DNA of 64,000 nucleotides from Pseudomonadota bacterium (GCA_031400755.1 JANNQL010000246.1:1008-65007); one strand, 5' to 3'; positions 15,334 through 39,321 are shown, counted from the stretch's first letter. The notes: a model not told the origin generated them from the letters alone. Translations and numbers: made by a program.

Positions 15334-16887
15334 TTAGTGGTGGTCTACCATCTTGATCCGTTCATCATAATTAAAGTTATCGTCGTGTGACCCGCTGTGG
15401 CAGGTCTGGCAGACGCCAGGGCCTGGTTTCAGGGCCATCGGGTTGGCCTTGGGGTTGCCGATGTGGAGGCGACCGGGGCCATGGCAGGTCTCGCAGCCGA
15501 CCTCGCGCCTGGCTTCGGTAATAGAGAGGGACTCGGACGCTTGGTCCATGCTTACGCCGGTAACATGGCAGGGCAGGCAGCTCAGGTTGTATTGCTGTTT
15601 GTCCTTCGCCAAGGTCGCGTAGGCGGCGGCGTGTCTGGTCTTTTGCCATGAAGCCAGCTGGGCGGCATGGCATGAGCCGCAGCTGCGAGAACCAAGATAG
15701 GGCGAATCGGTCTTGGTGGCGGTCTCGGCCTGGCGTTGGCCAAGTTTATTGACCGCTGAGTTAAGCGCGTCGACCAGACGGACTATCTCTGGTTGGTCAG
15801 GGAGCGCGGTTTCCATGGCCATGAAGCGGTTTGTGTAGGCAGACGGTTCGCCGGTGCTTGGCCCCTGTTGGTCGAGGGTTTTGCTCAGTTGGTCGATTTC
15901 GCCCCGCAGTTCTTGCTCTTGCGCTTGGAGGGCATGATAGATATTGAGTTGGTCCGGTTGATTGCGGAGGGCGGTTTCCGGGTCTTTGTCTTGCTGGTAC
16001 TTGCTGAGTTGCCAGAGCAGGCGGTCGAGGGCGCCTTTCTTTTTGGCGAGGACTTCGGTCTTCTGGTCTCCCCAACGCTTGCTGGGTTGCCAGTTTATTT
16101 CCATGATACCGATCTGTTTGCCTTGGGGGCCAGTGCTGACCAGGACCGTGTTGTTGATCGGTTCAGGCGAGATGGCATTGGTATTTGCCCCGGACTGGAT
16201 GATCAGGTGGATGCTTGGATAGCTTAGAGCGATCCGTTGGCTGTCGGCGGCAGGTAGGTTGGAGAGGAGGACGACCAGATCATGGGTCTTGTCCACCTTG
16301 GCCAGCAGATCGGGCAACACTTGGTCCCAGGGAAGAATCGTAGCCTCATCGGCTGGGGGTAAAGCGGCAGGTCCGGTCAGGCCGATCACCCCGACCTTGA
16401 CGCCCTCGACATTTACGGTTGTACTGGCCTTAAAGAATGTTTTTTTCGTGGATTTATTAACCAGATTGGCGCTTAACCAGGTGAACTTGGCGTCCTTACT
16501 CAGCATTTGTAAAAAAGCTGAACCTGCGATCAGATCTTGACTGCCAACGCAGACCGCGTTGTAGCCGATCAGGCTGTAGGCCTCAACAATGGCGGCTGCG
16601 GCCATCTTTTCTTGCTCTTCCTGGCGGGGATTGATAGCATCATGCTTAAACAGCAAGGCCCCGGCGTCCAAGGTGAGGTGGGGTCGATTTGCCTCTTTGG
16701 CGATTTTGTTGAATTGAAATGCTTTTTTGGACAGACCGCCCAATTGATGGCTGTGTCAGCCGCAGGGTGCGGTCTCGCCATGTACGTCATTGGAATAGAA
16801 GAGCAGGAGATTTTGGCCTGATTCAGCGGCAAAAATTGGTTGGGCCAAGGAAAACATGGCAACAATAATGAGGGTGGATAATTTCAT
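15334..16887 (-). CDS. Periplasmic degenerate 5'-nucleotidase/metallophosphoesterase-like domain fused to tetrahaem cytochrome c. Contains one in-frame TGA (16756..16758), proposed as selenocysteine at codon 44.
   Basis: Track ORFs 16756..17031 and 15334..16743 share one frame and are separated only by the TGA. ATG at 16887 has a GGAG RBS and a signal peptide MKLSTLIIVAMFSLAQPIFA. NDVHG motif present. C-terminus has CGSCH, CLPCH, CETCH, CQTCH. Confidence 0.7.
16727..16743 (-). promoter_or_regulatory. Candidate bacterial SECIS apical hairpin
   Basis: mRNA UUGGGC-GGUCU-GUCCAA (6 bp including one G.U) starts 12 nt after the UGA. The loop begins GGUC as in the E. coli fdhF SECIS. Confidence 0.5.
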
Positions 16888-18261: not shown

Positions 18262-20397
18262 ATGGACAACTCCTCGCTTAAAGATGATCGGTCTTATCTA
18301 ATTCAGATTGTTGATGACGATAAAATCCTCAGGCAGGTTCTCAGTATGGGGATGTCAAAGGCCGGATTTTTTACTTCGGAATCGCAAAACGGTGAGGACG
18401 CTGTCAATGATTTCCAGGAATTGATGCCGGACGCCATCCTCCTAGATGTCATGATGCCTGACATGGATGGGTTTGAAGTCTGCACCAGGATCAGGCGCTT
18501 GCCGGGTGGAGAGCGGGTGCCGATCATCATGCTCACCGGTGAGGATGATTATCAGTCGATCAATCAGGCCTTCAATTGCGGGGCCACTGATTTTGTAGTC
18601 AAACCGATTAATCCGTTGTTGCTCAGTTACAAAATTCGCTACATTATCCGGGCGAACCAGGCGATTAGCGATTTGACCATCAGAGATGTCATGCTGGCCT
18701 CGGCCCATGAAATTGCCCATTTGACCAATTGGGAATGGCGACTGTCCGACAACAGCCTCAGTTGGGGTGAGGGTATGTGCAGGTTGATGGGAATTAAGGG
18801 AGATGATGCCCCCAGGACCTACGAGGATTTTCTCAATCTGATCTATCCGGAGGACCGTACGGCAGTGTCCCATGTCATTTTGCAGGCCCTGGAAAGAAAA
18901 TCAGGCATCTTTTTTGAGCATCGTCTGCTGACTGCTGATGGCATTGAGCTTTCTTTCCGGCAGGACGGGACTATTTTGACGGATGCAGACGGGGAGGCGA
19001 CCAAGATTATCTTCACTTGTCAGGATGTTACCCAGTCAAAGCTCAATGAACAGAAAATAAAATTTCTGGCATACTATGACCGTTTGACCGGACTGCCGAA
19101 CCGCTTTCTCTTTAAGGAGCATCTGGCCAAGGCCCTGGCCAATTGTAAACGTAATTGTCAGTTTCTGTCGGTCATCTTTGTTGATATTGATAGTTTTCGC
19201 AGTATTAATGACACCTTTGGTCGCGAGGTGGGAGACAAGGTCCTGAAGTTGATTTCCTCCCGTTTGCGTGAATGTCTTCGCCGCTCGGACACTGCGGGCA
19301 GTGTCAGCGAAAATGAGATCACCGCCCGTTTCGGCGCCGACGAGTTCGGCATCATCCTTGAGGGACTGAGAGACATGGCGGATGCGGCGATTGTCGCACG
19401 CCGGGTCATTGATTCCCTGACCAAGATGGTCACCTTGGACGATAATGAGATTTTTCTTAATTGCCGCGTCGGGGTGTCAGTCTATCCCGATAATGGCGAG
19501 ACTGTTGATGAGTTGATGAAGAGCGCCGACTCTGCATTGTCAAGCGCCAAGGAACTGGAACGCAACAGCTATCAATTTTATACCGCAGAATTAAACACCA
19601 AGGCCTTTGCCCGATTCGCCTTGGAAAGAAGCTTGCGGAGGGCGGTGGAAAAGCAGGAATTTATCTTGGCCTACCAGCCTCAGGTGAAGTTGTCCACCGG
19701 CAAGGTGACAGGGGTCGAGGCCCTGATTCGTTGGGTCCATCCCGAGTTAGGGATTGTCTCGCCCATGGATTTTATCCCCTTGGCCGAGGATACCGGGCTG
19801 ATTGTGCCTATTGGCGAGTGGGTCCTGCGGACAGCCTGCGCCCAGAGCAAGGCCTGGTCTGATGCTGGACATTTCATAAAGGTGGCAGTCAATCTGTCCG
19901 CCGGTCAGTTCAGGGATGATAAGCTGCTCAGCATGATTAGCGGGGTATTGGCCGAAACTAAGGTAAGGCCGGAGTTGATCGAGCTTGAGATTACTGAATC
20001 CATGCTGATGGACAATATCGAGGGCAGCATTCATCGGCTTGACCAGCTCAGTCAATTTGGATGCCGATTATCCATTGACGATTTTGGCACCGGCTACTCA
20101 TCGCTCAATTATTTGAAGCGATTCCCGGTGGATGTGCTGAAGATTGACCGCTCTTTTGTCAGTGATCTGGCCCATAGTGAAGATGACGCCATGATCGTCA
20201 AGGCCATTGTCACCCTGGCCCATAACCTCAACCTTGAGGTGGTGGCAGAAGGAGTGGAAAGCCGAGAACATCTGACCTATCTTTCATACCTGGGATGTGA
20301 CCTTATTCAGGGCTATCTGGTCAGCAAGCCGGTAGCAGTGGACAAGGTGGAGCACTTCTTCGGGGATTGGACGCTCAACGACCTGGCTACGTCATAG
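18262..20397 (+). CDS. Response-regulator receiver - PAS - GGDEF (degenerate GADEF) - EAL protein; probable c-di-GMP phosphodiesterase
   Basis: 711 aa; LLDVMMPDMDG receiver, RFGADEFGIIL, EALIRW, DDFGTGYSSL. Confidence 0.9.
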   Translation: MDNSSLKDDRSYLIQIVDDDKILRQVLSMGMSKAGFFTSESQNGEDAVNDFQELMPDAILLDVMMPDMDGFEVCTRIRRLPGGERVPIIMLTGEDDYQSINQAFNCGATDFVVKPINPLLLSYKIRYIIRANQAISDLTIRDVMLASAHEIAHLTNWEWRLSDNSLSWGEGMCRLMGIKGDDAPRTYEDFLNLIYPEDRTAVSHVILQALERKSGIFFEHRLLTADGIELSFRQDGTILTDADGEATKIIFTCQDVTQSKLNEQKIKFLAYYDRLTGLPNRFLFKEHLAKALANCKRNCQFLSVIFVDIDSFRSINDTFGREVGDKVLKLISSRLRECLRRSDTAGSVSENEITARFGADEFGIILEGLRDMADAAIVARRVIDSLTKMVTLDDNEIFLNCRVGVSVYPDNGETVDELMKSADSALSSAKELERNSYQFYTAELNTKAFARFALERSLRRAVEKQEFILAYQPQVKLSTGKVTGVEALIRWVHPELGIVSPMDFIPLAEDTGLIVPIGEWVLRTACAQSKAWSDAGHFIKVAVNLSAGQFRDDKLLSMISGVLAETKVRPELIELEITESMLMDNIEGSIHRLDQLSQFGCRLSIDDFGTGYSSLNYLKRFPVDVLKIDRSFVSDLAHSEDDAMIVKAIVTLAHNLNLEVVAEGVESREHLTYLSYLGCDLIQGYLVSKPVAVDKVEHFFGDWTLNDLATS

Positions 20398-25043: not shown

Positions 25044-26525
25044 GTGCTGAAACATATTATCCTGCCTATCCTCGCTGTCATGTCCTTGGTTGCCGGCTGC
25101 TCAAATAATAGCGGCACATCTAATGATGCCACGACCAGGAGCGACGTCTCCGGCGATAAGGTCAAACCTCAACCTGTTCATGGCTGTCGTGGCTGTCATC
25201 CATTGACAATGGGTCGGAACCACGATTTTTCTTGTGACGATTGCCACGATGGCGATGTCAAGGCCAGCGCCAAGGATGCCGCCCATGCCGGTCTGGTCGG
25301 GCAACCGGCCCACCCGGACCGCATGACTGCCATCTGTGGCCGATGTCATGGGGCAATTGTTAGGCAAGCGGCAAGTGCCCTCCATTTCACAGTTGCCAAC
25401 GAAATCAATCTGATACGCCAAGCCTTTGGGGCAAAGGAAGGCGTGGCCTCGCTCACCGCCATTCCGCAGCACATTTTGCCGACGTCTCCGTTACAATTGG
25501 CCGATGATCTCCTTAGGCGTCGATGTCTGCGCTGCCATCTTTACGCAGCAGGGGACAGCTATCCCGCCACCCGGCATGGGACCGGCTGCGCCGCCTGTCA
25601 TCTTGCCTTTGTGGGCGGCAGGCTCAGCGATCATCAATTTCTGTCCCGACCCACAGATCAGCAATGTTTGAGCTGTCATTACGGTAACCGGGTTGGCGCT
25701 GATTATTACGGACGCTTTGAGCATGATTTAAATTGGGACTACCGCACTCCATTTCAGGCCGCGAAAGGAGAGGCGATCCAACCCTATGGGGTCGGCTATC
25801 ATCAACTGAGCCCTGACCTTCATCAACAAGCCGGTATGACATGTGTAGATTGCCATAATGGTCAGGAGTTGATGGCGGGCGGTCCTCGCCTGACCTGTCG
25901 TGACTGTCATGATGCCCACCTTGCTCAAAGTGCGCCGTCATCTTTGACTGAGACCGATGGCCGCCGTCTGTTGACGACTGTATCAACCGGCAAGCGCTTG
26001 GAGGTCCCGCTGATGAAAGACCTGGCCCATGGCCGTTATGGGGCAAAGGTGGCATGCCAGGTCTGCCACGGCCAATGGAGTTTTGCCGATCATGGCAATC
26101 ATCTCCTGCGTCAGGACGACCCTGACTACGAACCGTGGCAGGCCCTGACCCGACAGGGCAATGCTGAAATCGAGACAAAACTTGAGGCGGTGCTGTTTCA
26201 AGACGGGGCCGCCAGCGAGGCGACCATGACCGATGGCATTACCGGCAGCCCTTCGCCTGGAATCTGGTTGCAGGCTTATGAACTAAGGCGTTGGGAGGAG
26301 ATTAATACCTGCCTCGACGGTCAAGGTGTTCTCCAGGTCTGCCGCCCTATCCTTGACTTGCACCTCTCTTATGTCAATCAGGATGGCGAGGTGGTCTTCG
26401 ACGGAGTGCGTCCCCTTGCCGGCACCCAGATCATGCTGCCTTACACGCCGCACACCACCGGTCGGGCCGGGGCATTCTACCAACAACGACTTATTCCCTC
26501 GCTCGGGGTATCCTTAGTAAGATGA
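25044..26525 (+). CDS. Nine-haem c-type cytochrome lipoprotein
   Basis: GTG start; lipobox LVAGC. Nine CxxCH motifs: CRGCH, CDDCH, CGRCH, CLRCH, CAACH, CLSCH, CVDCH, CRDCH, CQVCH. The last ~150 aa are haem-free. Confidence 0.85.
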   Translation: MLKHIILPILAVMSLVAGCSNNSGTSNDATTRSDVSGDKVKPQPVHGCRGCHPLTMGRNHDFSCDDCHDGDVKASAKDAAHAGLVGQPAHPDRMTAICGRCHGAIVRQAASALHFTVANEINLIRQAFGAKEGVASLTAIPQHILPTSPLQLADDLLRRRCLRCHLYAAGDSYPATRHGTGCAACHLAFVGGRLSDHQFLSRPTDQQCLSCHYGNRVGADYYGRFEHDLNWDYRTPFQAAKGEAIQPYGVGYHQLSPDLHQQAGMTCVDCHNGQELMAGGPRLTCRDCHDAHLAQSAPSSLTETDGRRLLTTVSTGKRLEVPLMKDLAHGRYGAKVACQVCHGQWSFADHGNHLLRQDDPDYEPWQALTRQGNAEIETKLEAVLFQDGAASEATMTDGITGSPSPGIWLQAYELRRWEEINTCLDGQGVLQVCRPILDLHLSYVNQDGEVVFDGVRPLAGTQIMLPYTPHTTGRAGAFYQQRLIPSLGVSLVR

Positions 26526-27346: not shown

Positions 27347-28750
27347 TCAGTCCAGGATATATCGGTTTTTGCCAGACTCTTTGGCTTGGTAAAGATTTTT
27401 ATCGGCCCGTTTGAGGAAAGAATCAGGCGTGTCATCAGGCCTGAATTGGGTCAGGCCGAGGCTGACGGTCTTGTTGACCTTTTCGCCGTTATTGGGACAA
27501 AAATCATGGACTGCGAAATTGAGTCGGATTCGCTCCGCCACCGTGATGGCGTTCTTGCTGATGGTGGCTGGCAGGATTACGGTAAATTCCTCGCCGCCAT
27601 AGCGGTGGCCGCAGTCAAGGGAGCGGATACTCATGCGAATGATTTGCCCCATGGCTTCCAGGACGCGGTCACCTTCAGCATGGCCGTAGGTGTCATTGAA
27701 ATGCTTGAAATTATCGATGTCCATGATGATCATGGACAAGGGGTGACTATAGCGCTTGGCCCGGTCACTCTCGTGGCGCAGGATCTCGTTGAAATGACGT
27801 TTATTGAAGAGACCAGTCAACTCATCGACAATGCTGAGTTCCTTGTAGCGGCCCTCGCTCTCCTTCAGCGCCGCCTCGGCTTGGACCTGGGTGGTGATGT
27901 CGGTGACATGTTCGACCATGCCCAGCAGTTCCCCGACCAGCCCCCGGAATGGAGTGGAAACGACACTGTAAAAGATTTTTTCGCCGGTTATGGTCTCCTT
28001 TTGCACCAGACTTTCCACCCGTTTTTCACCATTTTTAATTTTGGTCAACGGGCAGTCCGTGGTGTGGCACATTGTGGAGTGAAAGACCTCATAGCATTTT
28101 TTGCTTTTGATATCGGTATCAACGGTAGCGTTGGCCATTGCCATGAAGGTGTCATTGTGCCGGATGATTTTGCAATCATTGTTGATTAGGGCAATTCCGC
28201 CGGCCACGGTCTTGAAGATCTGATTGATCTCGACATAGGCCTGTTCCGCCTCCATCGCCAATTGATTGGCCCGTTCGATGGACTCCTCCAATTGGTGGTT
28301 GACGTTTTCAAGGTCATTTTTGTATTGATCAATTATGGTAACGGCTTGTTCAATGGCCAAGAGATCGACCATGCCCTGCTTGGCGATGCCCAGCCAATCC
28401 GCGATGCTGGAGTCCTGAATTGGCTGACTCATGCAAAAGCTGGCCCCGGCCTTCAAGGCCTTTTTTGGGTCCATGGTCGGGGCCTGATTGGCCACCATGA
28501 GTATGGTGCAGTAATTGCCCATGGCGGAGGCTCTGATCTGTTGGCACAGGGTCAGCGCGGCCCCATCCGGCAAGTGCGATTCAACGATGACTAAGCGGGG
28601 TGATTCCTTTTGGAAGGCAGACCAGCCGGCCTTTACTGAAGAGCATGACTGGACGCGAAAGCCAAAGGCCAGGGCGCTTTCTTCCAGTTCCTTTCTTACC
28701 TCAGGATGGTCTTCAATAATCAGTACTTTTGGTCCCTTATCTTCTATCAT
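27347..28750 (-). CDS. Response-regulator receiver - PAS - GGDEF diguanylate cyclase
   Basis: 467 aa; VLIIEDHPE receiver, RYGGEEFTVILP. Confidence 0.9.
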   Translation of the reverse strand: MIEDKGPKVLIIEDHPEVRKELEESALAFGFRVQSCSSVKAGWSAFQKESPRLVIVESHLPDGAALTLCQQIRASAMGNYCTILMVANQAPTMDPKKALKAGASFCMSQPIQDSSIADWLGIAKQGMVDLLAIEQAVTIIDQYKNDLENVNHQLEESIERANQLAMEAEQAYVEINQIFKTVAGGIALINNDCKIIRHNDTFMAMANATVDTDIKSKKCYEVFHSTMCHTTDCPLTKIKNGEKRVESLVQKETITGEKIFYSVVSTPFRGLVGELLGMVEHVTDITTQVQAEAALKESEGRYKELSIVDELTGLFNKRHFNEILRHESDRAKRYSHPLSMIIMDIDNFKHFNDTYGHAEGDRVLEAMGQIIRMSIRSLDCGHRYGGEEFTVILPATISKNAITVAERIRLNFAVHDFCPNNGEKVNKTVSLGLTQFRPDDTPDSFLKRADKNLYQAKESGKNRYILD

Positions 28751-29940: not shown

Positions 29941-30095
29941 TATGATCTTCACTCAGTCCTCTTTGGATATATGTACTATCCGCCTTGACATGGGCATGTT
30001 GACTCCCGTACAGTAATTGAGGGTCGTTTGCTCGTCCCCTTTGCGGTATTGAGCTTGGCGTATGTAACTCATAAATCTCAGGAAACCGTTTTGTC

Positions 30096-31046
30096 ATGTC
30101 GCGTCCATTCGTCATCATTGACCATTCCTGCTACCTGGAGCATGACACCGGCGGTGGTCTGCACCCGGAGGTGCCGGGCCGGGTCGCCGCCATCCGTCAG
30201 CGGTTGCTGACAAGCCGCTTGGCCTCGCTGATGACCCGGCACGAGCCCAAGCCCCTCGGTCGTGCCGATCTGCTGGCCGTGCATGACGAGGCCTATCTGT
30301 TCAGGTTGGAGGAGGCCTGCCTGGCAGGGCAGACCAGTATAGATCATTCCGATAACCAGATCAGTTATGAATCATTCGATGTCGCACTGCTGTCAGCAGC
30401 AGCTGGTACAACCGGTATTGATTTTCAGGAAAACGGTCAGGCCGGGACGGTGTTCTGTTCGGTCCGACCGCCTGGCCACCATGCCGAGCGGTCTACGGCC
30501 TTGGGCTTTTGTTTTCTGAATAATGTGGCCATTGCCGTCCGTTACTGGCAAAAGGCCTATGGTCGCAAAAAGATCTTTATCATCGACTGGGACGCCCACC
30601 ACGGCAACGGTATCCAGAGCGCCTTTGAAAACGATCCTAATGTCTTTTATGCCAGCATCCACGAACACCCGACTTTTAGTTTCCCAGGGACAGGTTATGC
30701 CGATGAACGCGGCCTTGGTGATGGCCTCGGCACTACCCTGAATGTGCCGCTACCGCCGGGAGCTGGTGACGAAATGCTGATGGAGGCCATCCAAGGCAAA
30801 ATTGCCGAGGCCTTTTTGACCTTTAAACCCGAGGCCCTGATTGTGGCGGCGGGTTTTGACGGGCACTTAGACGATGACATGTCAGGGCTCTCCTATTCCA
30901 CCAGCGTCTACGAAAAGTTAGGCGCGATCATGCAGCAATGGGGCCAGCACTGCCAGGGCAGGGTGGTGTCGATCCTGGAAGGCGGTTATCATCTTGAATC
31001 ACTTTCGGCAAGCGTCGAGGCCTATCTGGCCGGGCTCACCGGCTAA
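30096..31046 (+). CDS. Histone deacetylase-family (AcuC/HDAH-like) Zn-dependent deacetylase
   Basis: 316 aa; VRPPGHHAE, DWDAHHGNG, AAGFDGH, EGGYH. Confidence 0.85.
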   Translation: MSRPFVIIDHSCYLEHDTGGGLHPEVPGRVAAIRQRLLTSRLASLMTRHEPKPLGRADLLAVHDEAYLFRLEEACLAGQTSIDHSDNQISYESFDVALLSAAAGTTGIDFQENGQAGTVFCSVRPPGHHAERSTALGFCFLNNVAIAVRYWQKAYGRKKIFIIDWDAHHGNGIQSAFENDPNVFYASIHEHPTFSFPGTGYADERGLGDGLGTTLNVPLPPGAGDEMLMEAIQGKIAEAFLTFKPEALIVAAGFDGHLDDDMSGLSYSTSVYEKLGAIMQQWGQHCQGRVVSILEGGYHLESLSASVEAYLAGLTG

Positions 31047-31091
31047 GCCGTTGTATGAAAATAACCTAGTCAGTCTGGTTAGCCAAAACGG

Positions 31092-31113
31092 CATCCCCCT
31101 CAAGGGGGGACTG
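31092..31113. repeat. GC-hairpin repeat copy (same as the reverse complement of 18121..18144)
   Basis: CATCCCCC-TCAA-GGGGGGACTG. Confidence 0.5.
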
Positions 31114-31197
31114 AACAGAGTAAGGAGCCGTAATGGAACGGTCAGAATTGTACAAGTTATTTCGTAACGGCTCCTAAAAGGCAGAGGAGGGGAATTC

Positions 31198-31863
31198 ATG
31201 TATGTCACAAACTATATGAAAAGAGCACCGGTGACGGTGAGGCCTGAGACCAGTATCGCTGAAGTAAAATCAATCCTGGAGACCAAGCACTTCCGGCACT
31301 TGCCGGTGGTGGATGATAAAGGCCGCCTGCTTGGCATGGTGACGGACCGAGACGTCCGTTCGGCCTATCCATCGTCGGTTGTGAGCGATAAGCAAAACAA
31401 GGATGAGATGCTGAAGGTCAGCCAGTCACCGGTCTGTGAGATCATGACTTGGGATGTGGTCTTTCTTGCTCCCTACGCCACCTTGGATGATGCCCTCATC
31501 CTGCTCGACCGGCAAAAGGTCGGGGCCTTGCCGGTAGTGGATGAGGACCGGACGGTGATTGGCATCTTCTCAATCAGTGATTTGATCCAGGCCTATACCA
31601 AACTTTTTGGCTTGGGCGAACGGGGGTCGGCCCTGGTCGGCGTCAAGGCCGATGGTAAGCCCCGGCCGCTGACCAGAATTGTCCATGTCCTGGAAGAGCA
31701 CGGCATTCATTTTAACCGGGTGGTGCGCAAGAAGGATGACACCCCCGGTGCGAGCTTCGAAACGATCACCATTCGGGTGAACACCATGAATATACGTGCC
31801 GTGCACCGGGCCCTGGAAGAGGCAGGTTTTGTCATCGACCCCATGCAGCCCGATCGATCATAG
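31198..31863 (+). CDS. CBS-pair + ACT-like domain protein (AcuB-like)
   Basis: 221 aa; two CBS repeats (HLPVVDDKGRLLGMVTDRD, ALPVVDEDRTVIGIFSISD) and a C-terminal ACT-like fold. Confidence 0.75.
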   Translation: MYVTNYMKRAPVTVRPETSIAEVKSILETKHFRHLPVVDDKGRLLGMVTDRDVRSAYPSSVVSDKQNKDEMLKVSQSPVCEIMTWDVVFLAPYATLDDALILLDRQKVGALPVVDEDRTVIGIFSISDLIQAYTKLFGLGERGSALVGVKADGKPRPLTRIVHVLEEHGIHFNRVVRKKDDTPGASFETITIRVNTMNIRAVHRALEEAGFVIDPMQPDRS

Positions 31864-31876
31864 GATTTATTTATTT

Positions 31877-33967
31877 ATGCTGGAAGCCTTATTTCAACCC
31901 AAGACTATCGCTATCATCGGCGCCTCTCGAACCGCTGGCACCTTTGGTAATCGCCTCCTGGCCAATATCATCCAGGGCGGCTTTGCTGGCACTATCGTGC
32001 CGGTCAATCCGAAAGCCGATTCTATCCTGGGGCTACCCTGCTATCACAAACTAGTTGAATTTTCTGGCCGTATAGATTTAGGGATCATCGTGGTCCCGGC
32101 CTCACAATGCAAGGAGGCGGTGCGGGAGGCCATGGATGCCGGGGCCCGGGCCGTGGTCTGCCTGGCAGTGGGATTTAAGGAATCTGGCGAGGCAGGGGCT
32201 GAACTGGAAACGGAGATTGCCGAGATCTGCGCTCTGCGTGATGTGCGGCTCCTGGGGCCCAACTGCCTGGGCCTGATAAATACCGACCACCACCTCTTCG
32301 CCTTTGACTCCGAACAACGACCGAGGCTGGGCGGCATTTCGATGCTTTCCCAGTCCAGCTCAATCTGTTCGTTGTTTCTGGACAGGCTGGTCAACGCTCA
32401 GTTGGGTCTGGCCAAGATGATCAGCATCGGCAACAAGGCCGATCTCTCTGAAATCGATCTCTTGCGGGAGTTGGCGGTTGACCCGCAAACCTCAGTCATT
32501 ATCGGCTATCTGGAGAGTATCAATGCCGGCGATGGTTTTGTAAAAGCTGCTGAGTACGCCACCTCCCGCAAACCGGTGATCATCTTGAAGGCCGCCACTA
32601 CTTTGGCCGGTCGCAAGGCGGTGGCGGCCCATTCGGGCGAGATGATCGGCCAGGATTCGGCCTATGGCGCGGCCTTCAGGCGTTCCGGGGTGATTCGGGC
32701 CGATACCATGGGCGCCCTGTTTGATTTGACTGCGGCCTTTACCCTGCAACCCTTGCCCAAGGGCAATCGGGTCCTGGTGTTGACCAATGCCGGTGGCCCT
32801 GGAATTATGGCGGTGGACGCCATTGAACGGGCCGGGCTGGTTGCCGCTTATCTGGAGGCGTCGGCCTCGCTTGCCCTCCGTGCGGAACTGCCGGACGCCT
32901 CGACAATTTATAACCCCATCGACCTGTTGGCTGACGCCAGCCCAGAACGGTATCGATTAGCGATTAGCCTCATCTTGGCCGACCGCAATGTCGATGCCTT
33001 GGTGGTGGTCTTTGCGGACCGGGGGCCCAACAGGCAGGCGTCGGAGATTGCCCGCCTGATTGTGGACTGCAATCATCGCCAGAAACCGATGGTGGCTTGT
33101 TTTATGGGTGGCGGGGCAACGGCCCGTGACATTTTGATTCATGGCGGCGTACCGGCCTACGACTCACCGGAGCGGGCCGTTGCCGTACTTAAGGCCATGA
33201 GCGAGTATGTGGCCTGGCGCCATCGTCCACCCCGGGTGGTGACCCGATTCAAGGTGCACCGGCGACCGGTCGAAAGGATCATTTTCCGCCACCTGCGCAG
33301 CAATCGACTCCATATTGCCGAGGTCAAGGCCAAGGACATCCTCAAGGCCTATGATTTCCAGGTACCTGAAGGTCATCTGGCGGTTTCGGTGGAGGAGGCC
33401 ATTGAACAGGCCGAGCGCATCGGCTATCCGGTGGCCATGAAAATTGTCTCACCAGATATTGTTCACAAGAGTGATATGGGCGGGGTCAAGCTCAACATTG
33501 TCAACCGCCAAGGGGTCTGCGATGGTTTTGACCTGATGATGCTGCGGGTCAACCAGTTAGCTCCAGGGGCCTTGATTGATGGGATTTACATAGAGAAGAT
33601 GCTTGACCGTGGTCTGGAAGTCATCTTGGGTATGCACCGTGATCCGCACTTCGGGCCGATGCTGATGTTCGGTCTGGGCGGCATATATGTCGAGGTCATG
33701 AAGGACGTGGCCTTCAACCTGGCCCCCATAACTTTTGACGAGGCCATGACCATGCTGACCAGCACCAAATCCTATCAGATGCTGGTCGGGGCGCGTGGTG
33801 AGGGTGGGGTGGACATGAAGGCCATCGCCCACTGCCTGCAGAAGATAAGTCAACTTGCTACCGACTTCCCACAGATTGCCGAACTGGAGATCAATCCCTT
33901 GATAGTCGGTGAGATCGGCACCGAACCAGTGGTGGCGGACGCCAAGATCAATCTGCGTGGGAATTAA
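31877..33967 (+). CDS. NDP-forming acyl-CoA synthetase-like protein (CoA-binding + CoA-ligase + ATP-grasp), Pat N-terminal-domain-like, no GNAT
   Basis: Start at MLEALFQPKTIAIIGAS (ATG 31877); GPNCLG, AAHSGEM loop; ATP-grasp segment YPVAMKIVSPDIVHKSDMGGVKLNI. Confidence 0.8.
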   Translation: MLEALFQPKTIAIIGASRTAGTFGNRLLANIIQGGFAGTIVPVNPKADSILGLPCYHKLVEFSGRIDLGIIVVPASQCKEAVREAMDAGARAVVCLAVGFKESGEAGAELETEIAEICALRDVRLLGPNCLGLINTDHHLFAFDSEQRPRLGGISMLSQSSSICSLFLDRLVNAQLGLAKMISIGNKADLSEIDLLRELAVDPQTSVIIGYLESINAGDGFVKAAEYATSRKPVIILKAATTLAGRKAVAAHSGEMIGQDSAYGAAFRRSGVIRADTMGALFDLTAAFTLQPLPKGNRVLVLTNAGGPGIMAVDAIERAGLVAAYLEASASLALRAELPDASTIYNPIDLLADASPERYRLAISLILADRNVDALVVVFADRGPNRQASEIARLIVDCNHRQKPMVACFMGGGATARDILIHGGVPAYDSPERAVAVLKAMSEYVAWRHRPPRVVTRFKVHRRPVERIIFRHLRSNRLHIAEVKAKDILKAYDFQVPEGHLAVSVEEAIEQAERIGYPVAMKIVSPDIVHKSDMGGVKLNIVNRQGVCDGFDLMMLRVNQLAPGALIDGIYIEKMLDRGLEVILGMHRDPHFGPMLMFGLGGIYVEVMKDVAFNLAPITFDEAMTMLTSTKSYQMLVGARGEGGVDMKAIAHCLQKISQLATDFPQIAELEINPLIVGEIGTEPVVADAKINLRGN

Positions 33968-33970
33968 ACT

Positions 33971-35866
33971 ATGACAGACGCCCCAGCTCCATTCTATGAT
34001 CCCAACTGGCAGGAACGGTATCGTTCCATGATCACCACGGCCAAGGATGCCTTGCGTTCTTTGCGTCCCGGTCAGCGGGTCTTTATCGGTACCGGTTGCG
34101 CAGAACCCCAGGAACTGGTGCAGGCCTTGACTGACCGGGCCCATGAACTTCAAGACATCGAGATCATCCATCTCCTGACCAAAGGGGACGCCCTTTACGC
34201 CGCAAAAGAATACGCCGATTGCTTCCGGGTGAACAGTTTTTTTATCGGTCATAATGTTCGCGATCAGATCCAGGAGGGCTTGGGCGATTATACCCCGGTC
34301 CTGTTGTCCGACATCCCCCGGCTCTTCAACTCAGGCCAGGTCCCCATCGACGTCGCCCTGATTCAGGTTACGCCGCCGGACCTTCGCGGCAGGGTAAGCC
34401 TTGGCATCTCGGTGGATATCGTCAAGAGCGCCGCTGCCAACGCCTCGCAAGTCATTGCCCTGGTCAATGAGCAGATGCCGTTTACCTTTGGCGACAGTCT
34501 GCTGGATATTAATGACCTTGATGTCCTGGTGCCTGCCAACACCCCTCTTCTGGAACGGGCCTCCAAGCCGCCGCATCCGGCGACCGATACCATTGCCCAG
34601 CATATAGCCGCCCTGATTCAGGATGGAGACTGCCTGCAGTTCGGTATGGGCCGGATTCCAGGCATTGGCCGCATACCGCCGGCGGTGATGAATTACCTGC
34701 TGGACAAGCGCGACCTTGGTCTCCATACCGAGATGATCACCGACAGCATCATTAAACTGGTTGAGGCCGGGGTGTTGACCGGCAAGAAAAAGACACTCGA
34801 TCGCGGCAAGCTCGTGGCCTCATTCTGTATGGGGACGCGGCGGCTCTATGATTTGATCCACCTTAATCCGCTTTTTGCCTTCAAGCCGTCTGAGTATGTC
34901 AATGATCCAATGATCATCAGCCGGCAGGAGCGCATGGTCTCGATCAACATGGCCATGGAGATTGACCTGAGCGGCCAGGTTTGCACCGACTCAATCGGCG
35001 AAAAGTTTTATTCAGGTATCGGCGGTCAGATCGATTTTAACCGGGGAGCGGCCCGCTCTCCTGGTGGCAAGGCCATTCTGGTCATCGCCGCAGTGGATGA
35101 GGAGAACCACAAATCACGGATTGTGTTGCGGCTTAGTCCTGGGGCCGGGGTCAGTATCACCCGGGGCGATGTGCATTATGTGGTCAGTGAGTATGGGGTG
35201 GCCTATCTGCACGGCAAGACGGTCCAAGAGCGGGCCCTGGCCCTGATCTCCATCGCCCATCCCGATTACCGGGCGAAATTGTTTCAGGAGGCCATAGATT
35301 GTAAATTGATCCGCAGCGAACATGCCAATGTCCTGGCTGGCTTTGTGGTGGCGGTCGGTGGACGTAAAAAGAAGGTGGTGCTGGCCGATGGCCTGGAGGC
35401 CTGCCTGCGCCCGATTCAACCGACAGACGAACAGGGAATCAAAAATCTGGTCTACTCCTTGTCGCAAGAGAGCCTCTATTATCGTTTTATGACCCGGACC
35501 AAGCATTTCGGCGCCAAGCAGATCTTTGATTTTATCTATGTCGATCACCGCAGTAATGTCGCCCTGGTTGTCACTATCCCCGAGGCCCATGGCGAGGACA
35601 TCATCGCGGTGGGCCGTTATTTCCTAGACAAAAAAACTAACCGCGCCGAGGTCGCCTTTGTGGTCCGTGACGAGTGGCAGGGCCGGGGCATTGGCAAGTT
35701 GTTGTTTGAGGCGCTGGTGGTGATCGCCAAACAGAACGGGATCGTAGGGTTTACCGCCGAAGTCCTTCGTGAAAACCGTAAGATGCAGGCCGTGCTCAAT
35801 TGTTGCGGACTTACGGTTACCAGTCATCTGGAAGATGATGTCTACAGTTTTAATATGGATTTTTAG
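33971..35866 (+). CDS. Acetyl-CoA hydrolase/CoA-transferase family domain fused to a C-terminal Pat-type GNAT acetyltransferase domain
   Basis: 631 aa; SGIGGQIDFNRGA (CoA-transferase). C-terminal LRPIQPTDEQG...YYRFM...VAFVVRDEWQGRGIGKLL (GNAT Q/RxxGxG). Confidence 0.8.
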   Translation: MTDAPAPFYDPNWQERYRSMITTAKDALRSLRPGQRVFIGTGCAEPQELVQALTDRAHELQDIEIIHLLTKGDALYAAKEYADCFRVNSFFIGHNVRDQIQEGLGDYTPVLLSDIPRLFNSGQVPIDVALIQVTPPDLRGRVSLGISVDIVKSAAANASQVIALVNEQMPFTFGDSLLDINDLDVLVPANTPLLERASKPPHPATDTIAQHIAALIQDGDCLQFGMGRIPGIGRIPPAVMNYLLDKRDLGLHTEMITDSIIKLVEAGVLTGKKKTLDRGKLVASFCMGTRRLYDLIHLNPLFAFKPSEYVNDPMIISRQERMVSINMAMEIDLSGQVCTDSIGEKFYSGIGGQIDFNRGAARSPGGKAILVIAAVDEENHKSRIVLRLSPGAGVSITRGDVHYVVSEYGVAYLHGKTVQERALALISIAHPDYRAKLFQEAIDCKLIRSEHANVLAGFVVAVGGRKKKVVLADGLEACLRPIQPTDEQGIKNLVYSLSQESLYYRFMTRTKHFGAKQIFDFIYVDHRSNVALVVTIPEAHGEDIIAVGRYFLDKKTNRAEVAFVVRDEWQGRGIGKLLFEALVVIAKQNGIVGFTAEVLRENRKMQAVLNCCGLTVTSHLEDDVYSFNMDF

Positions 35867-37402: not shown

Positions 37403-37774
37403 ATGACAAGAAAAATCCTTATCGTCGATGATTCGCCTATTTCCAGGAGAATGCTGAAGAGCTGTTTCCCCAAGGAACAACCCTATGAGTTTTATGAGGC
37501 AGGCGATGGCTTGGCCGGTTTTGAACTTTATAAGGAGGTTCGTCCGGAGATAACCTTTATGGATCTGACCATGCCGGTTATGGATGGCGCGACTTCCATT
37601 GATGAGATTCGAAAGTTTGACCCCAAGGCCTTGGTTATTGTGTCAACCGCCGATGTTCAGATCAAATCGCTCACCCGGGTCATGGAGTTGGGGGCGTTTA
37701 TGGTGTTGAAGAAACCGCCTTCAAAAGAAAGTGTTCTGGACGCCTTGACCCAGAGCGAAGAATTGTTGGGGTGA
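37403..37774 (+). CDS. CheY-like single-domain response regulator
   Basis: 123 aa; ILIVDDS, FMDLTMPVMDG, VSTA, VLKKP. Confidence 0.85.
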   Translation: MTRKILIVDDSPISRRMLKSCFPKEQPYEFYEAGDGLAGFELYKEVRPEITFMDLTMPVMDGATSIDEIRKFDPKALVIVSTADVQIKSLTRVMELGAFMVLKKPPSKESVLDALTQSEELLG

Positions 37775-37781
37775 AATAGCG

Positions 37782-38426
37782 ATGGAACAGGAGCAGACTC
37801 TGCTGAGCGAAGAGGAAAGGGACATTCTGCAAGAGATAATGAACATTGCCTTTGGTCAGGCTACCGCTGATCTGACGGAAATCATTAATGTTCATGTAGT
37901 GTTGAATGTCCCTTATATTAAGGTGCTAAAGGCAATTGACATGCCTGGCTATCTCAAGAATGAGCTTGCCGGGCATGAGGCCATCAGTATGGTCGAGCAG
38001 CACTTCTGGGGGGAGTTTAAAGGGAGTGCCTATCTGATTTTTCCGGCTGGGGCCGGCAAAGAGCTGGTTACGATCATGGGCGAGGGGGGCGGCGAGAATG
38101 AGTTTGAATCGTTTATGTCCGATGTTATGGAAAAAGAGACCCTGATGGAAGTCGGCAATATCCTGATTGGCGCCTGTGTCGGCAAAGTGGCGGAACTGCT
38201 TGGCGACAGGGTTACTTATTCTCCTCCCCGGGTGGCTATCGAGAATTACGCAACTGATTCTCTCCCGGCCGAGATCTTCGATCTCCAGGCATCCGCCATT
38301 GTCCTCAGGACGGTGTTTAACTTTAATGAGCGCGATGTCAGTGGGTTTCTTTTTTTACTCACCAAGTATGATTCAATTAGCTGGTTGAAAAAATCGTTGG
38401 TTACCTTTATGGAGAAGTATGAGTGA
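37782..38426 (+). CDS. CheC-family CheY-P phosphatase (two active-site repeats)
   Basis: Exact D-x3-E-x2-N-x22-P match at DILQEIMN-22aa-P. Second near-exact repeat ETLMEVGN-22aa-P. Confidence 0.8.
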   Translation: MEQEQTLLSEEERDILQEIMNIAFGQATADLTEIINVHVVLNVPYIKVLKAIDMPGYLKNELAGHEAISMVEQHFWGEFKGSAYLIFPAGAGKELVTIMGEGGGENEFESFMSDVMEKETLMEVGNILIGACVGKVAELLGDRVTYSPPRVAIENYATDSLPAEIFDLQASAIVLRTVFNFNERDVSGFLFLLTKYDSISWLKKSLVTFMEKYE

Positions 38427-39321
38427 GTTGTTGACCCAGATATTTGATACAGTGAATATCGGAGTGCTTACCCTTGATCTTGAATTACAGGTCCAGTATT
38501 GGAATCGTTGGATGGAGTTGCACAGCGGAATACCTGCCGAAAAAATAATCGGCACACCAATTGTTGATTTCTATCCAAACCTGAACAATCCCCGGTTTGC
38601 CAAGAACTGCAAATCTGTGTTATCGTTTGGTAATTTTTCGTTTTTCTCTCAAAAACTCCACAAGTATCTCTTTCCCTTCAGGCCGGACAGCTCTTTCGGC
38701 AGCAGCTTTGAGTTTATGCAGCAGAGTTGTACGATGGGGCCACTCCGTGATCAGGACCACTCGATTACGAGCCTGTTTCTCATTGTCCAGGATGTCACCG
38801 AACTTGCCGCCTCTGAACAGCGTTTGATTGAGTTGAACACTAAAGACGCGCTGACCGGGATTTATAATCGGCGGTATCTGGAAGTACACCTGAAGGACGA
38901 ATGCGAACGGCATTTGCGGTATGGTCGGCAGATGAGCCTGATCATGTTTGACATCGATTTCTTCAAGAAGGTGAATGACAACTATGGCCACCAGTGCGGC
39001 GACCTCGTTCTGAAGACGATTGCCACCGGAATCTCCCAATTGGCGAGGCGCACGGACTATTTTGTCCGTTATGGCGGCGAGGAGTTCTGTTGTATATTAC
39101 CTGAGACCTCGGCCGAGGAGGCAGTGAATCAAGCGGAGCGTTTTCGTTGTTATATTGCCGGCTTGGTCATGAGGTGCAAGGAGGTCAAGGTCCAGGTGAC
39201 CATCAGTCTGGGGATTGCCGAGTTGCGCGTTGGGGACGAACCGGACCAGTTGCTGAAGCGGGCCGATGACGCCCTGTATGAAGCAAAAAAAGCGGGAAGG
39301 AACCGGGTGGTATTGGGGTAG
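38419..39321 (+). CDS. PAS - GGDEF diguanylate cyclase with an intact I-site
   Basis: 300 aa; RRTD I-site five residues before GGEEF. Overlaps the cheC-like stop by 8 nt. Confidence 0.9.
   Translation: MSELLTQIFDTVNIGVLTLDLELQVQYWNRWMELHSGIPAEKIIGTPIVDFYPNLNNPRFAKNCKSVLSFGNFSFFSQKLHKYLFPFRPDSSFGSSFEFMQQSCTMGPLRDQDHSITSLFLIVQDVTELAASEQRLIELNTKDALTGIYNRRYLEVHLKDECERHLRYGRQMSLIMFDIDFFKKVNDNYGHQCGDLVLKTIATGISQLARRTDYFVRYGGEEFCCILPETSAEEAVNQAERFRCYIAGLVMRCKEVKVQVTISLGIAELRVGDEPDQLLKRADDALYEAKKAGRNRVVLG

Follow-up and report, generated by a model that had tools for sequence, protein, structure and literature searches.

Organization of the locus

A window of 64,000 nt from a Pseudomonadota bacterium (GCA_031400755.1 JANNQL010000246.1:1008-65007) carries at positions 30096 to 35866, counted from its first letter, four plus-strand open reading frames (ORFs) of 316, 221, 696, and 631 aa, separated by spacers of 151, 13, and 3 nt. 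They are predicted to encode an HDAC-family deacylase, a homologue of the deacetylase regulator AcuB, an ADP-forming acyl-CoA synthetase (ACD), and a fusion protein that joins a CoA-transferase (CoAT) to a Pat-type GNAT (Table 1). The initial annotation of this DNA had proposed four co-oriented genes with exactly these boundaries and spacers, making up a reversible acetylation module assembled from the parts of acuABC and Pat. The gene layout was recovered as proposed, and screening with Pfam and NCBIfam hidden Markov models returned all of the listed domains, including those of the CoAT-GNAT fusion, except for ACT, with E-values much too low to be a matter of chance. A GTG-initiated extension of the ACD ORF, starting at 31796, was rejected; relatives and homologues of solved structure in the PDB align from residues 1 to 5 of the 696-aa form, and ATG 31877 is therefore taken as the correct start.

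Table 1. Genes, protein domains, and candidate promoter at the locus (window positions)
Feature	Position	Strand	Size or extent	Assignment
Sigma-70-like promoter match, TTGACA-18-TACAGT	29985-30014	+		10/12 consensus matches; 82 nt before the HDAC ATG (30096)
HDAC gene	30096-31046	+	316 aa	Zn-dependent HDAC-family deacylase, class II/HdaH-like; putative eraser
AcuB homologue gene	31198-31863	+	221 aa	CBS pair (Bateman domain) and C-terminal ACT-like domain; putative nucleotide-sensing HDAC regulator
ACD gene	31877-33967	+	696 aa	ADP-forming (NDP-forming) acyl-CoA synthetase, fused alpha-beta order; sequence features of an active enzyme
CoAT-GNAT fusion gene	33971-35866	+	631 aa	CoA-transferase followed by Pat-type GNAT
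Fusion, CoA-transferase domain	33971-35311	+	residues 1-447	4-Hydroxybutyrate/short-chain fatty acid CoA-transferase family
Fusion, flexible linker	35312-35371	+	residues 448-467	~20 residues; AlphaFold2 predicted local distance difference test (pLDDT) <50 for residues 452-464
Fusion, GNAT domain and stop codon	35372-35866	+	residues 468-631	Pat-type; putative lysine acyltransferase (writer)

A CoA-transferase fused to a Pat-type acetyltransferase

The fusion protein matched AcetylCoA_hydro (PF02550; 2.5e-25) and AcetylCoA_hyd_C (PF13336; 5.1e-60) in its N-terminal part and Acetyltransf_1 (6.2e-08) and Acetyltransf_3 (1.5e-07) in its C-terminal part. The best PDB match of the CoAT domain was Thermus thermophilus TtCoAT (9vag; 401 bits). 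Residue E254 (nucleotides 34730 to 34732) aligns with Glu238 of C. aminobutyricum AbfT (3gk7), which we take to be the catalytic glutamate. PDB matches of the GNAT region at E ≤ 1e-4 were all Pat-type lysine acetyltransferases (KATs; 4nxy, 4u5y, 4ava, 9isq, 9it0, and 4orf), the nearest solved relatives being S. lividans PatA, M. tuberculosis Pat, MsPat, and enterobacterial Pat; no AcuA structure appeared among the matches at this threshold. Against the NCBIfam mycobacterial Pat model the GNAT scored 99 bits, below the cut-off of 460. AlphaFold2 folded both domains (mean pLDDT, 78; predicted template modeling score [pTM], 0.66), with low confidence at residues 452 to 464 and at GNAT alpha1-alpha2 (residues 506 to 528). 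A six-residue insertion at window positions 34643 to 34660 (residues ~225 to 230) generates a tandem GRIPGIGRIP just before the catalytic HTEM motif. No solved CoA-transferase has this insertion, and some fusion orthologues (P0096, P0108, and P0084) lack it as well.

The same two-domain architecture recurs widely, in numerous phyla of anaerobic bacteria. Both domains are present in all but one of the 120 closest database proteins, the exception being a truncated partial sequence (P0059). Among the 150 best-matching representatives of a library with clusters at 50% identity, full-length fusions numbered 70, down to ~31% identity. Genome comparison was based on the best 80 loci matching the fusion, all of which encode full-length fusions. 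The 593 genome matches were not used as a fusion count, because the search patterns were placed within the CoAT domain, so that CoA-transferases lacking a GNAT would match them too. Labels of the 80 loci, as given by the depositors of the metagenome-assembled genomes (MAGs), span more than 10 phyla and include Desulfobulbales, Myxococcota, Planctomycetota, Chloroflexota, Actinomycetota, Lentisphaerota, Kiritimatiellota, Verrucomicrobiota, Hydrogenedentes, Fibrobacterota, and Magnetococcales, among others; these loci share ancestry, and counts derived from them are phylogenetically nonindependent. Within this window clade (≥47% identity), E254 was present in 80/80 proteins and GGQxDF was nearly invariant. 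The GNAT glutamate E560 was found in 78/78 sequences, and the P-loop W-Q-x-x-G-x-G (WQGRGIG in the window) was conserved as well.

Five GNAT architectures currently describe enzymatic lysine acetylation in bacteria, and none of these five types contains a CoA-transferase domain (PMC8556138). Full-text literature searches for a CoA-transferase-GNAT fusion, or for the corresponding Pfam pair, retrieved no description, with most subscription journals lying outside their coverage, so that absence is not proof; papers on AcuB and on bacterial HDACs made no mention of such gene contexts. Public annotations of the fusion are generic ("GNAT family N-acetyltransferase," "4-hydroxybutyrate CoA-transferase," or "acyl-CoA hydrolase/GNAT"). 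The CoA-transferase-GNAT writer is thus apparently an undescribed KAT architecture outside the five known types, in agreement with the early impression that the system had not been characterized.

An acyl-CoA synthetase with both catalytic histidines

The product of the third gene matched CoA_binding_2, Succ_CoA_lig, Ligase_CoA_2, and ATP-grasp_5 (3.3e-78). The initial annotation had taken it for the Pat-like large domain encoded as a separate protein. Such a split Pat, in which the 696-aa protein would serve the GNAT in trans as a noncatalytic acetyl-CoA sensor, would account for a subdomain order identical to that of the Pat N-terminal region and for the tight coupling to the fusion gene (a 3-nt gap in the window and <60 nt in most relatives). 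This coupling persists even in P0129, a distant fusion whose CoAT has lost its catalytic residue and whose ACD gene ends 3 nt upstream. However, the ACD aligned over its full length with the ADP-forming 4-hydroxybutyrate-CoA ligase 8wzu at 486 bits versus 279 bits for Pat (9isq). Its catalytic H252 (AAHSGEM), which sits where Pat 9isq has a gap, is kept in 72/74 orthologues, and the second histidine, H530 (VHKSDMGG), in 68/74; the ACD partner of P0129 also has both, and most fusions with a dead CoAT have no ACD neighbor. The ACD-like domain of Pat is devoid of the catalytic histidine (PMC8556138). Given the retained histidines and the closer relationship to genuine ADP-forming ligases, the third gene does not encode a dead Pat-type sensor domain, and we regard the split-Pat explanation as quite improbable.

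All NCBIfam scores of the ACD fell under their cut-offs, i.e., 570 (cut-off, 1300) for 4-hydroxybutyrate-CoA ligase, 473 (567) for AcCoA-syn-alpha, and 462 (1300) and 447 (1200) for others, so that no substrate-specific equivalog is assignable. The protein looks like a working ACD by its sequence features, with a substrate not assigned to the acetate, 3-hydroxypropionate, or 4-hydroxybutyrate equivalogs.

A class II-type deacylase followed by an AcuB homologue

The first gene product matched Hist_deacetyl (1.6e-87) and holds the complete set of catalytic motif residues already reported in the initial annotation (H128/H129, D166/H168, D255, and Y298 in EGGY). These residues are invariant in 22 orthologues encoded, as here, upstream of the fusion, and also in the HDACs encoded downstream of it in other genomes. 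The best PDB matches were the bacterial lysine deacylase 5zmp (195 bits) and the HDAC6 catalytic domains (~150 bits each), compared with only 117 bits for the class I-like HDLP (1c3p) and 117 to 144 bits for acetylpolyamine amidohydrolases. In a published classification, cluster 1 comprises class II/HdaH enzymes, cluster 2c comprises AcuC, and cluster 4 is the sole cluster with reported bacterial polyamine deacetylases (PMC11532494). Judging from its matches, the window HDAC is a cluster 1 enzyme and belongs neither with AcuC nor with the polyamine deacetylases. Thus, among the Pat and AcuABC parts said to be united at this locus, the Pat-type GNAT, the AcuB homologue, and an HDAC-family enzyme are indeed present, whereas the Pat-like large domain and an AcuC orthologue are not.

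AcuB has been shown experimentally to bind adenine nucleotides and diadenosine tetraphosphate (Ap4A) and to inhibit the deacetylase AcuC; Arg33/His34 are the key pair in ligand binding, and Met188, in a C-terminal domain of ACT fold, plugs the active-site tunnel of AcuC (PMC13121692, PMC13039410). The second gene product contains two CBS domains (Pfam, 1.2e-32) and aligns over residues 5 to 213 with G. stearothermophilus AcuB (9s4w; 1.5e-24), T. thermophilus TTHA0829 (5awe), and B. subtilis AcuB (9qs7). The CBS pair of the initial annotation was thereby recovered with Pfam, but its ACT domain was not: Pfam ACT models gave no match to the C-terminal 84 aa, even at E ≤ 10, and we infer this fold only from the full-length alignment to the crystallized AcuB proteins. 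Residues R33, H34, D50, R51, and D128, which include the ribose-binding Asp, are invariant in 20/20 orthologues. The position of the Met188 plug is occupied by M197 in the window and by Y (12), M (3), or F (3) in orthologues. The acuB gene directly follows the HDAC gene in 18/19 loci, the remaining locus being cut by a contig end. The second gene product is a true AcuB homologue.

Conservation of gene neighborhoods

The sequence preceding the fusion extends to 2.3 kb or more in 71 loci. An ACD gene lies upstream of the fusion in 69 of these, either directly and on the same strand (67 loci) or separated from it by inserted mobile or defense genes (L068 and L070); two loci have no ACD. Pairwise identities of the ACD and the fusion correlate (r = 0.84). 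Both insertions are in Pirellulales. The first (L068:2802-5373) consists of a restriction-modification-like set encoding a D12-class adenine methyltransferase, a DUF6996/DUF6997 protein, and an N6_N4 methylase; the second (L070:7841-9971) encodes an AAA_21/AAA_15 ATPase and a 231-aa protein with no Pfam match. An apparent ACD-CoAT fusion (P0183, "ATP-grasp + CoAT"; L082, GCA_040776025.1 JAXHBK010000136.1) was dismissed as a frameshift or assembly artifact and is not used as evidence; it stems from a 5.9-kb MAG contig with the order HDAC-CBS-ACD-CoAT-GNAT, in which every gene is fragmented.

An HDAC gene occurs near the fusion in 37/80 loci, in at least three arrangements. The order HDAC-AcuB-ACD-fusion was found in 19 loci, only in Desulfobulbales-type genomes, and AcuB was absent from the related loci outside this group. 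HDAC-ACD-fusion layouts without AcuB occur in L019, L059, and L063. In Planctomycetota and one Delongbacteria MAG, the HDAC gene follows the fusion gene at 21 to 28 nt and encodes a different subtype, ~30% identical to the window HDAC. The conservation of gene neighborhood on which the initial annotation staked its proposal therefore applies across many phyla to the ACD-fusion pair and, for the complete four-gene set, to Desulfobulbales-type genomes only.

A gene for acetyl-CoA synthetase of the AMP-forming type (Acs) lies within 7 kb in 14/80 loci, in at least four arrangements, and the encoded proteins have the PX4GK motif in 14/14 cases. The layouts include codirectional acs-acd-fusion in Myxococcota, divergent acs and acd only in L037 and L049, and convergent genes together with an MFS transporter in Planctomycetota. 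Chance would place a gene of one or two copies beside the module at ~1% per locus, a figure that we estimated rather than computed. When all flanking ORFs were clustered, the sole recurrent neighbor besides ACD, HDAC, AcuB, and Acs was an MFS transporter (9 loci), the remainder being lineage-specific synteny.

The identities of these enzymes and neighbors also bear on a small-molecule N-acetylation cycle, in which the GNAT would acetylate a polyamine or an amino acid, the HDAC-family amidohydrolase would deacetylate it, and the CoAT and ACD would manage acetyl-CoA. GNATs are functionally promiscuous, and HDAC-fold enzymes include polyamine deacetylases and xenobiotic amidohydrolases (PMC11532494). 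Nevertheless, such a cycle appears very unlikely, considering that the GNAT matches solely Pat-type protein KATs in the PDB at E ≤ 1e-4, that the top HDAC matches are protein lysine deacylases (HDAC6, 5zmp, and HdaH) with the polyamine enzymes scoring lower and falling in cluster 4, that regulation of a protein deacetylase is known for AcuB homologues, and that Acs with its PX4GK lysine recurs nearby.

Putative writer-eraser fusions and decay of the CoA-transferase

Two metagenomic proteins, P0153 (955 aa) and P0168 (1013 aa), combine CoAT, GNAT, and HDAC in single polypeptides encoded by uninterrupted ORFs on 18.8- and 22.9-kb contigs, respectively. The HDAC domain of P0153 is nearest to the window type (186 versus 99 bits) and that of P0168 to the planctomycete downstream type (263 versus 124 bits); writer and eraser have therefore been fused at least twice independently. 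Nothing argues more strongly for shared substrates of the GNAT and the HDAC than these triple fusions, and, together with the recurrent adjacency of the two functions in different positions, they bear out the link between HDAC and GNAT in the original proposal. They also count against a chance association of the HDAC and acuB genes with an ACD-fusion pair that would be the real unit, the upstream genes serving unrelated targets. The 151-nt gap between the HDAC and acuB genes, with its GC-rich hairpin and strong acuB ribosome-binding site, and the 43/80 loci with no HDAC nearby would fit such an arrangement. Yet HDAC genes of two subtypes occupy independent positions in the other 37 loci, and the four-gene order of the Desulfobulbales-type loci is kept at just 42 to 61% protein identity. 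Chance adjacency is, in our assessment, the least probable explanation of all.

Outside the window clade, the CoAT domain has often decayed. In an alignment of 71 proteins (70 divergent fusion representatives and the window protein), the catalytic glutamate is E in 41; elsewhere D, Q, A, V, S, G, P, C, or F takes its place. The GGQxDF motif is degenerate in divergent fusions, whereas the GNAT glutamate and P-loop persist. The catalytic glutamate is missing in both triple fusions. Persistence of the GNAT motifs despite this loss indicates that selection acts on the GNAT and that the CoAT can be a noncatalytic regulatory domain. Its decay seems to follow the same trajectory as that of the ACD domain of Pat, which lost its histidine. 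The "acyl-CoA-producing" role contemplated in the initial annotation is one possibility, with a CoAT that looks catalytically intact in the window clade and degenerate in many distant members. Among seven dead-CoAT fusion contexts looked up, five have no ACD, P0129 retains it, and the P0190 contig is too short to tell. The ACD-less dead-CoAT fusions are P0131, P0144, P0200, and P0133, and the triple fusions are also counted among the ACD-less. ACD adjacency thus tracks the live-CoAT clade, which favors a metabolic ACD-CoAT partnership over a purely regulatory role of the ACD as a Pat domain in trans.

That partnership could in itself be the primary purpose of the locus. The ACD and the CoAT would then form an energy-conserving or low-cost activating couple (acyl-CoA + acetate → acid + acetyl-CoA, followed by acetyl-CoA + ADP + Pi → acetate + ATP), and the GNAT and HDAC would switch only these two enzymes by auto- or trans-acetylation. 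The catalytic residues of both enzymes are kept in the window clade, ACD adjacency follows the live CoAT, and TtCoAT, the closest solved CoAT, is itself the major substrate for a KAT in Thermus and is deacetylated by a Zn-dependent lysine deacetylase (KDAC), which makes this a serious rival. Transfer of the main Thermus acetylation site to the fusion was nonetheless rejected, because Lys5 of TtCoAT corresponds to Ser19 of the fusion, and the family does not conserve this lysine. Moreover, fusions with a dead CoAT and no ACD keep an intact GNAT, sometimes with a fused HDAC, so that the GNAT must have targets beyond a working CoAT and ACD, and Acs genes recur beside the module. We therefore rate a purely self-regulating pair as unlikely, albeit deserving of more weight than the other alternatives.

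Further variants of these proteins were observed. In P0133 and P0139 (L086:7001-9883), an N-terminal extension of ~330 aa contains 4Fe-4S dicluster (Fer4) motifs, and the catalytic CoAT glutamate is changed to Q or V; they may represent a redox-sensing variant of the writer. P0195 has no GNAT and links a response-regulator receiver domain to a CoA-transferase from this family, which suggests that two-component systems also employ such CoA-transferases as output domains.

Transcription signals and genomic surroundings

Promoter-like sites in the region scanned numbered 11, compared with 5.0 ± 2.4 in shuffled sequences. The best match upstream of the HDAC gene, at 29985 to 30014, is a plausible candidate for the HDAC gene promoter, as hinted at by its agreement with the consensus. 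A terminator scan of the locus gave none that was convincing, the count of terminator-like structures being that expected from shuffling. Within the HDAC-acuB spacer, a GC-rich hairpin (CCCCC-TCAA-GGGGG; 31095 to 31110) is not followed by a T-run and may act as a processing or attenuation element; 3′ of it, a strong GGAGG ribosome-binding site precedes the acuB ATG.

The divergent neighbor of the module is pyrF. Genes for Acs, Pta, AckA, and pyruvate:ferredoxin oxidoreductase were sought in the window; tblastn detected no acs, and the large ORFs encode housekeeping and signaling proteins. Cyclic di-GMP signaling genes are dense. They encode a REC-PAS-GGDEF-EAL protein (18262 to 20397; Pfam), a REC-PAS-GGDEF protein on the minus strand (27347 to 28750; assigned by eye from the translation), and a CheY-like/CheC-like/PAS-GGDEF trio directly 3′ of an aldolase gene (37403 to 39321; by eye). 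Two large multiheme c-type cytochromes are encoded at 15334 to 16743 (minus strand) and 25044 to 26525 (plus strand), one matching Cytochrome_C554 and the other showing many CxxCH motifs by eye. A Desulfobulbales-type host fits these cytochromes and the fact that the fusion is closest to proteins from Desulfobulbaceae and Desulfobacterota MAGs.

A putative module for reversible lysine acylation

The results above show how the genes of the locus and its relatives are arranged, which domains they encode, how far catalytic and ligand-binding residues are conserved, and which genes are syntenic or fused; from these we infer enzymatic activities, an AcuB-HDAC interaction, a target, and an acyl group. 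On balance, the four genes probably constitute, by a modest preference, a reversible protein-lysine acylation module placed at the node where acetate and short-chain acids are converted to acyl-CoA. The writer would be the C-terminal Pat-type GNAT of the 631-aa fusion. The CoAT domain would take the role of the ACD-like domain of Pat, binding acyl-CoA and coupling GNAT activity to the acyl-CoA pool, while in the window clade it still looks like a working short-chain-acid:acetyl-CoA CoA-transferase. The cotranslated upstream gene would supply an active ADP-forming acyl-CoA synthetase, which together with the CoAT would interconvert acids, acyl-CoAs, and ATP in a manner resembling the acetate:succinate CoA-transferase/succinyl-CoA synthetase (ASCT/SCS) cycle. 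The HdaH/class II-type Zn-dependent deacylase would act as the eraser. In Desulfobulbales, by analogy with Bacillus AcuB, the AcuB homologue may gate the system by binding adenine nucleotides or Ap4A and inhibiting the deacylase at low energy charge. The likeliest target is the catalytic lysine (PX4GK) in AMP-forming acyl-CoA synthetases, a target shared by all characterized Pat-type GNATs; acylation of Acs would prevent ATP-wasting cycling between Acs and the ACD/CoAT couple. The enzymes of the module itself are further possible targets.

Several observations weigh against this interpretation. All members of the fusion family are known here from sequence alone. Cluster 1 HdaH enzymes include nonprotein amidohydrolases, such as the dimethoate and propanil hydrolases (PMC11532494). 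The AcuB-HDAC interaction at this locus is an extrapolation, since the HDAC and AcuC belong to different classes and the Met188 plug position varies. The eraser is not obligatory, as 43/80 loci have no HDAC within their flanks, and the acs gene is missing both from the window and from the vicinity of 66/80 related loci. Finally, in the AlphaFold2 model of the fusion (pTM, 0.66; disordered linker), no CoAT-GNAT interface was confidently predicted, and allosteric coupling of the two domains, or channeling between them, is accordingly hypothetical.

A bolder variant of the acylation module, which we put forward as speculative and rather unlikely, is that the fusion works as an acid-programmable acyl writer, with acetyl-CoA being used by the live CoAT to turn the ambient acid into acyl-CoA beside the tethered GNAT. 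If so, acetyl-CoA would be regenerated by the ACD, and propionate, butyrate, 4-hydroxybutyrate, and similar acids would each give rise to the matching lysine mark, to be erased by the HDAC; the CoAT-GNAT-HDAC proteins would be single-chain writer-erasers. The fusion would then represent a sixth architecture among bacterial lysine acyltransferases, linking a free carboxylic acid to a protein mark by a direct enzymatic route.

Regulation of this kind is understood in few model organisms, namely, through Pat/CobB in enterics and AcuABC in Bacilli. The present locus would add a widespread sixth writer architecture, with at least 70 protein clusters at 50% identity holding both domains. The series from intact to degenerate CoAT is a good system to learn how metabolic enzymes become regulatory domains, including the origin of the dead ACD domain of Pat. 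With its AcuB homologue, the locus would carry AcuB-type control of deacetylation by energy charge outside Firmicutes and outside class I-like HDACs. Sulfate reducers, planctomycetes, and fermenters are the hosts, and their energy yield is set by fluxes of acetate, propionate, and acyl-CoA; the module is hence a candidate for a master switch of short-chain-acid metabolism under anoxic conditions.

Comparison with known systems

The pairing of an acetyl-CoA hydrolase/transferase-family CoAT with a ligase of the SCS superfamily is analogous to the ASCT/SCS cycle of anaerobic eukaryotes, in which ASCT and SCS together provide a substrate-level ATP gain from acyl-CoA. In contrast to that cycle, the subfamilies differ, the pairing is only genetic, and a GNAT is attached. 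With ADP-forming acyl-CoA synthetases, such as the Nitrosopumilus 4-hydroxybutyrate-CoA ligase (8wzu) and archaeal ACDs, the third gene product shares full-length homology, the fused alpha-beta order, and both phosphohistidines; it departs from them in scoring under every equivalog cut-off and in being encoded by a gene that is nearly always translationally coupled to a CoAT-GNAT gene.

In Thermus, TtCoAT (TT_C1083) is part of a regulatory circuit made up of the KAT TT_C1711 and the Zn-KDAC TT_C0104 (bioRxiv 10.1101/2025.10.31.685773). This circuit resembles the present locus in combining a short-chain-acid:acetyl-CoA CoA-transferase, the closest solved relative of the CoAT domain, with a KAT and a Zn-KDAC. 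Unlike here, KAT and KDAC are separate proteins with the CoAT as their substrate, an NAD+-sensing alanine-dehydrogenase-like protein participates in control, and the acetylated lysine of TtCoAT has a serine as its counterpart in the fusion.

Pat of Salmonella and E. coli (PatZ/YfiQ; type I) has in common with the fusion a Pat-type GNAT with the invariant Glu and Q/R-x-x-G-x-G/A, a large acyl-CoA-handling domain N-terminal to it, and a tie to acetate/acetyl-CoA metabolism and Acs; distant fusions have lost the catalytic residue of this domain, as the ACD domain of Pat lost its His. The differences are that the fusion's N-terminal domain belongs to the family I CoA-transferases instead of being ACD-like, that the ACD comes from a gene of its own (stop, 33967; following ATG, 33971) with its catalytic His residues retained, and that the eraser is a Zn-HDAC, compared with the sirtuin CobB. 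The locus is placed outside Pat because the defining feature of the latter, a fused His-less ACD domain, is absent.

As in acuABC/acsA of B. subtilis, a writer, a CBS-CBS-ACT regulator of the AcuB type, and an HDAC-fold eraser are encoded together, equivalents of the AcuB nucleotide-binding residues R33, H34, R51, and D122 are conserved in the second gene product, and some relatives (L037 and L049) have a divergent acs beside the module. However, the GNAT is Pat-type and fused to a CoAT rather than a stand-alone AcuA-type enzyme, the HDAC is class II/HdaH (cluster 1) rather than the class I-like AcuC (cluster 2c), the gene order differs, an ACD gene and a CoAT domain are added, and the window has no acs. 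Three of five AcuABC features, i.e., an AcuA-type GNAT, an AcuC-class HDAC, and a divergent acsA, are thus lacking. Collectively, these comparisons indicate that the module is a member of neither family, while its predicted mode of action is that of both Pat/CobB and AcuABC.

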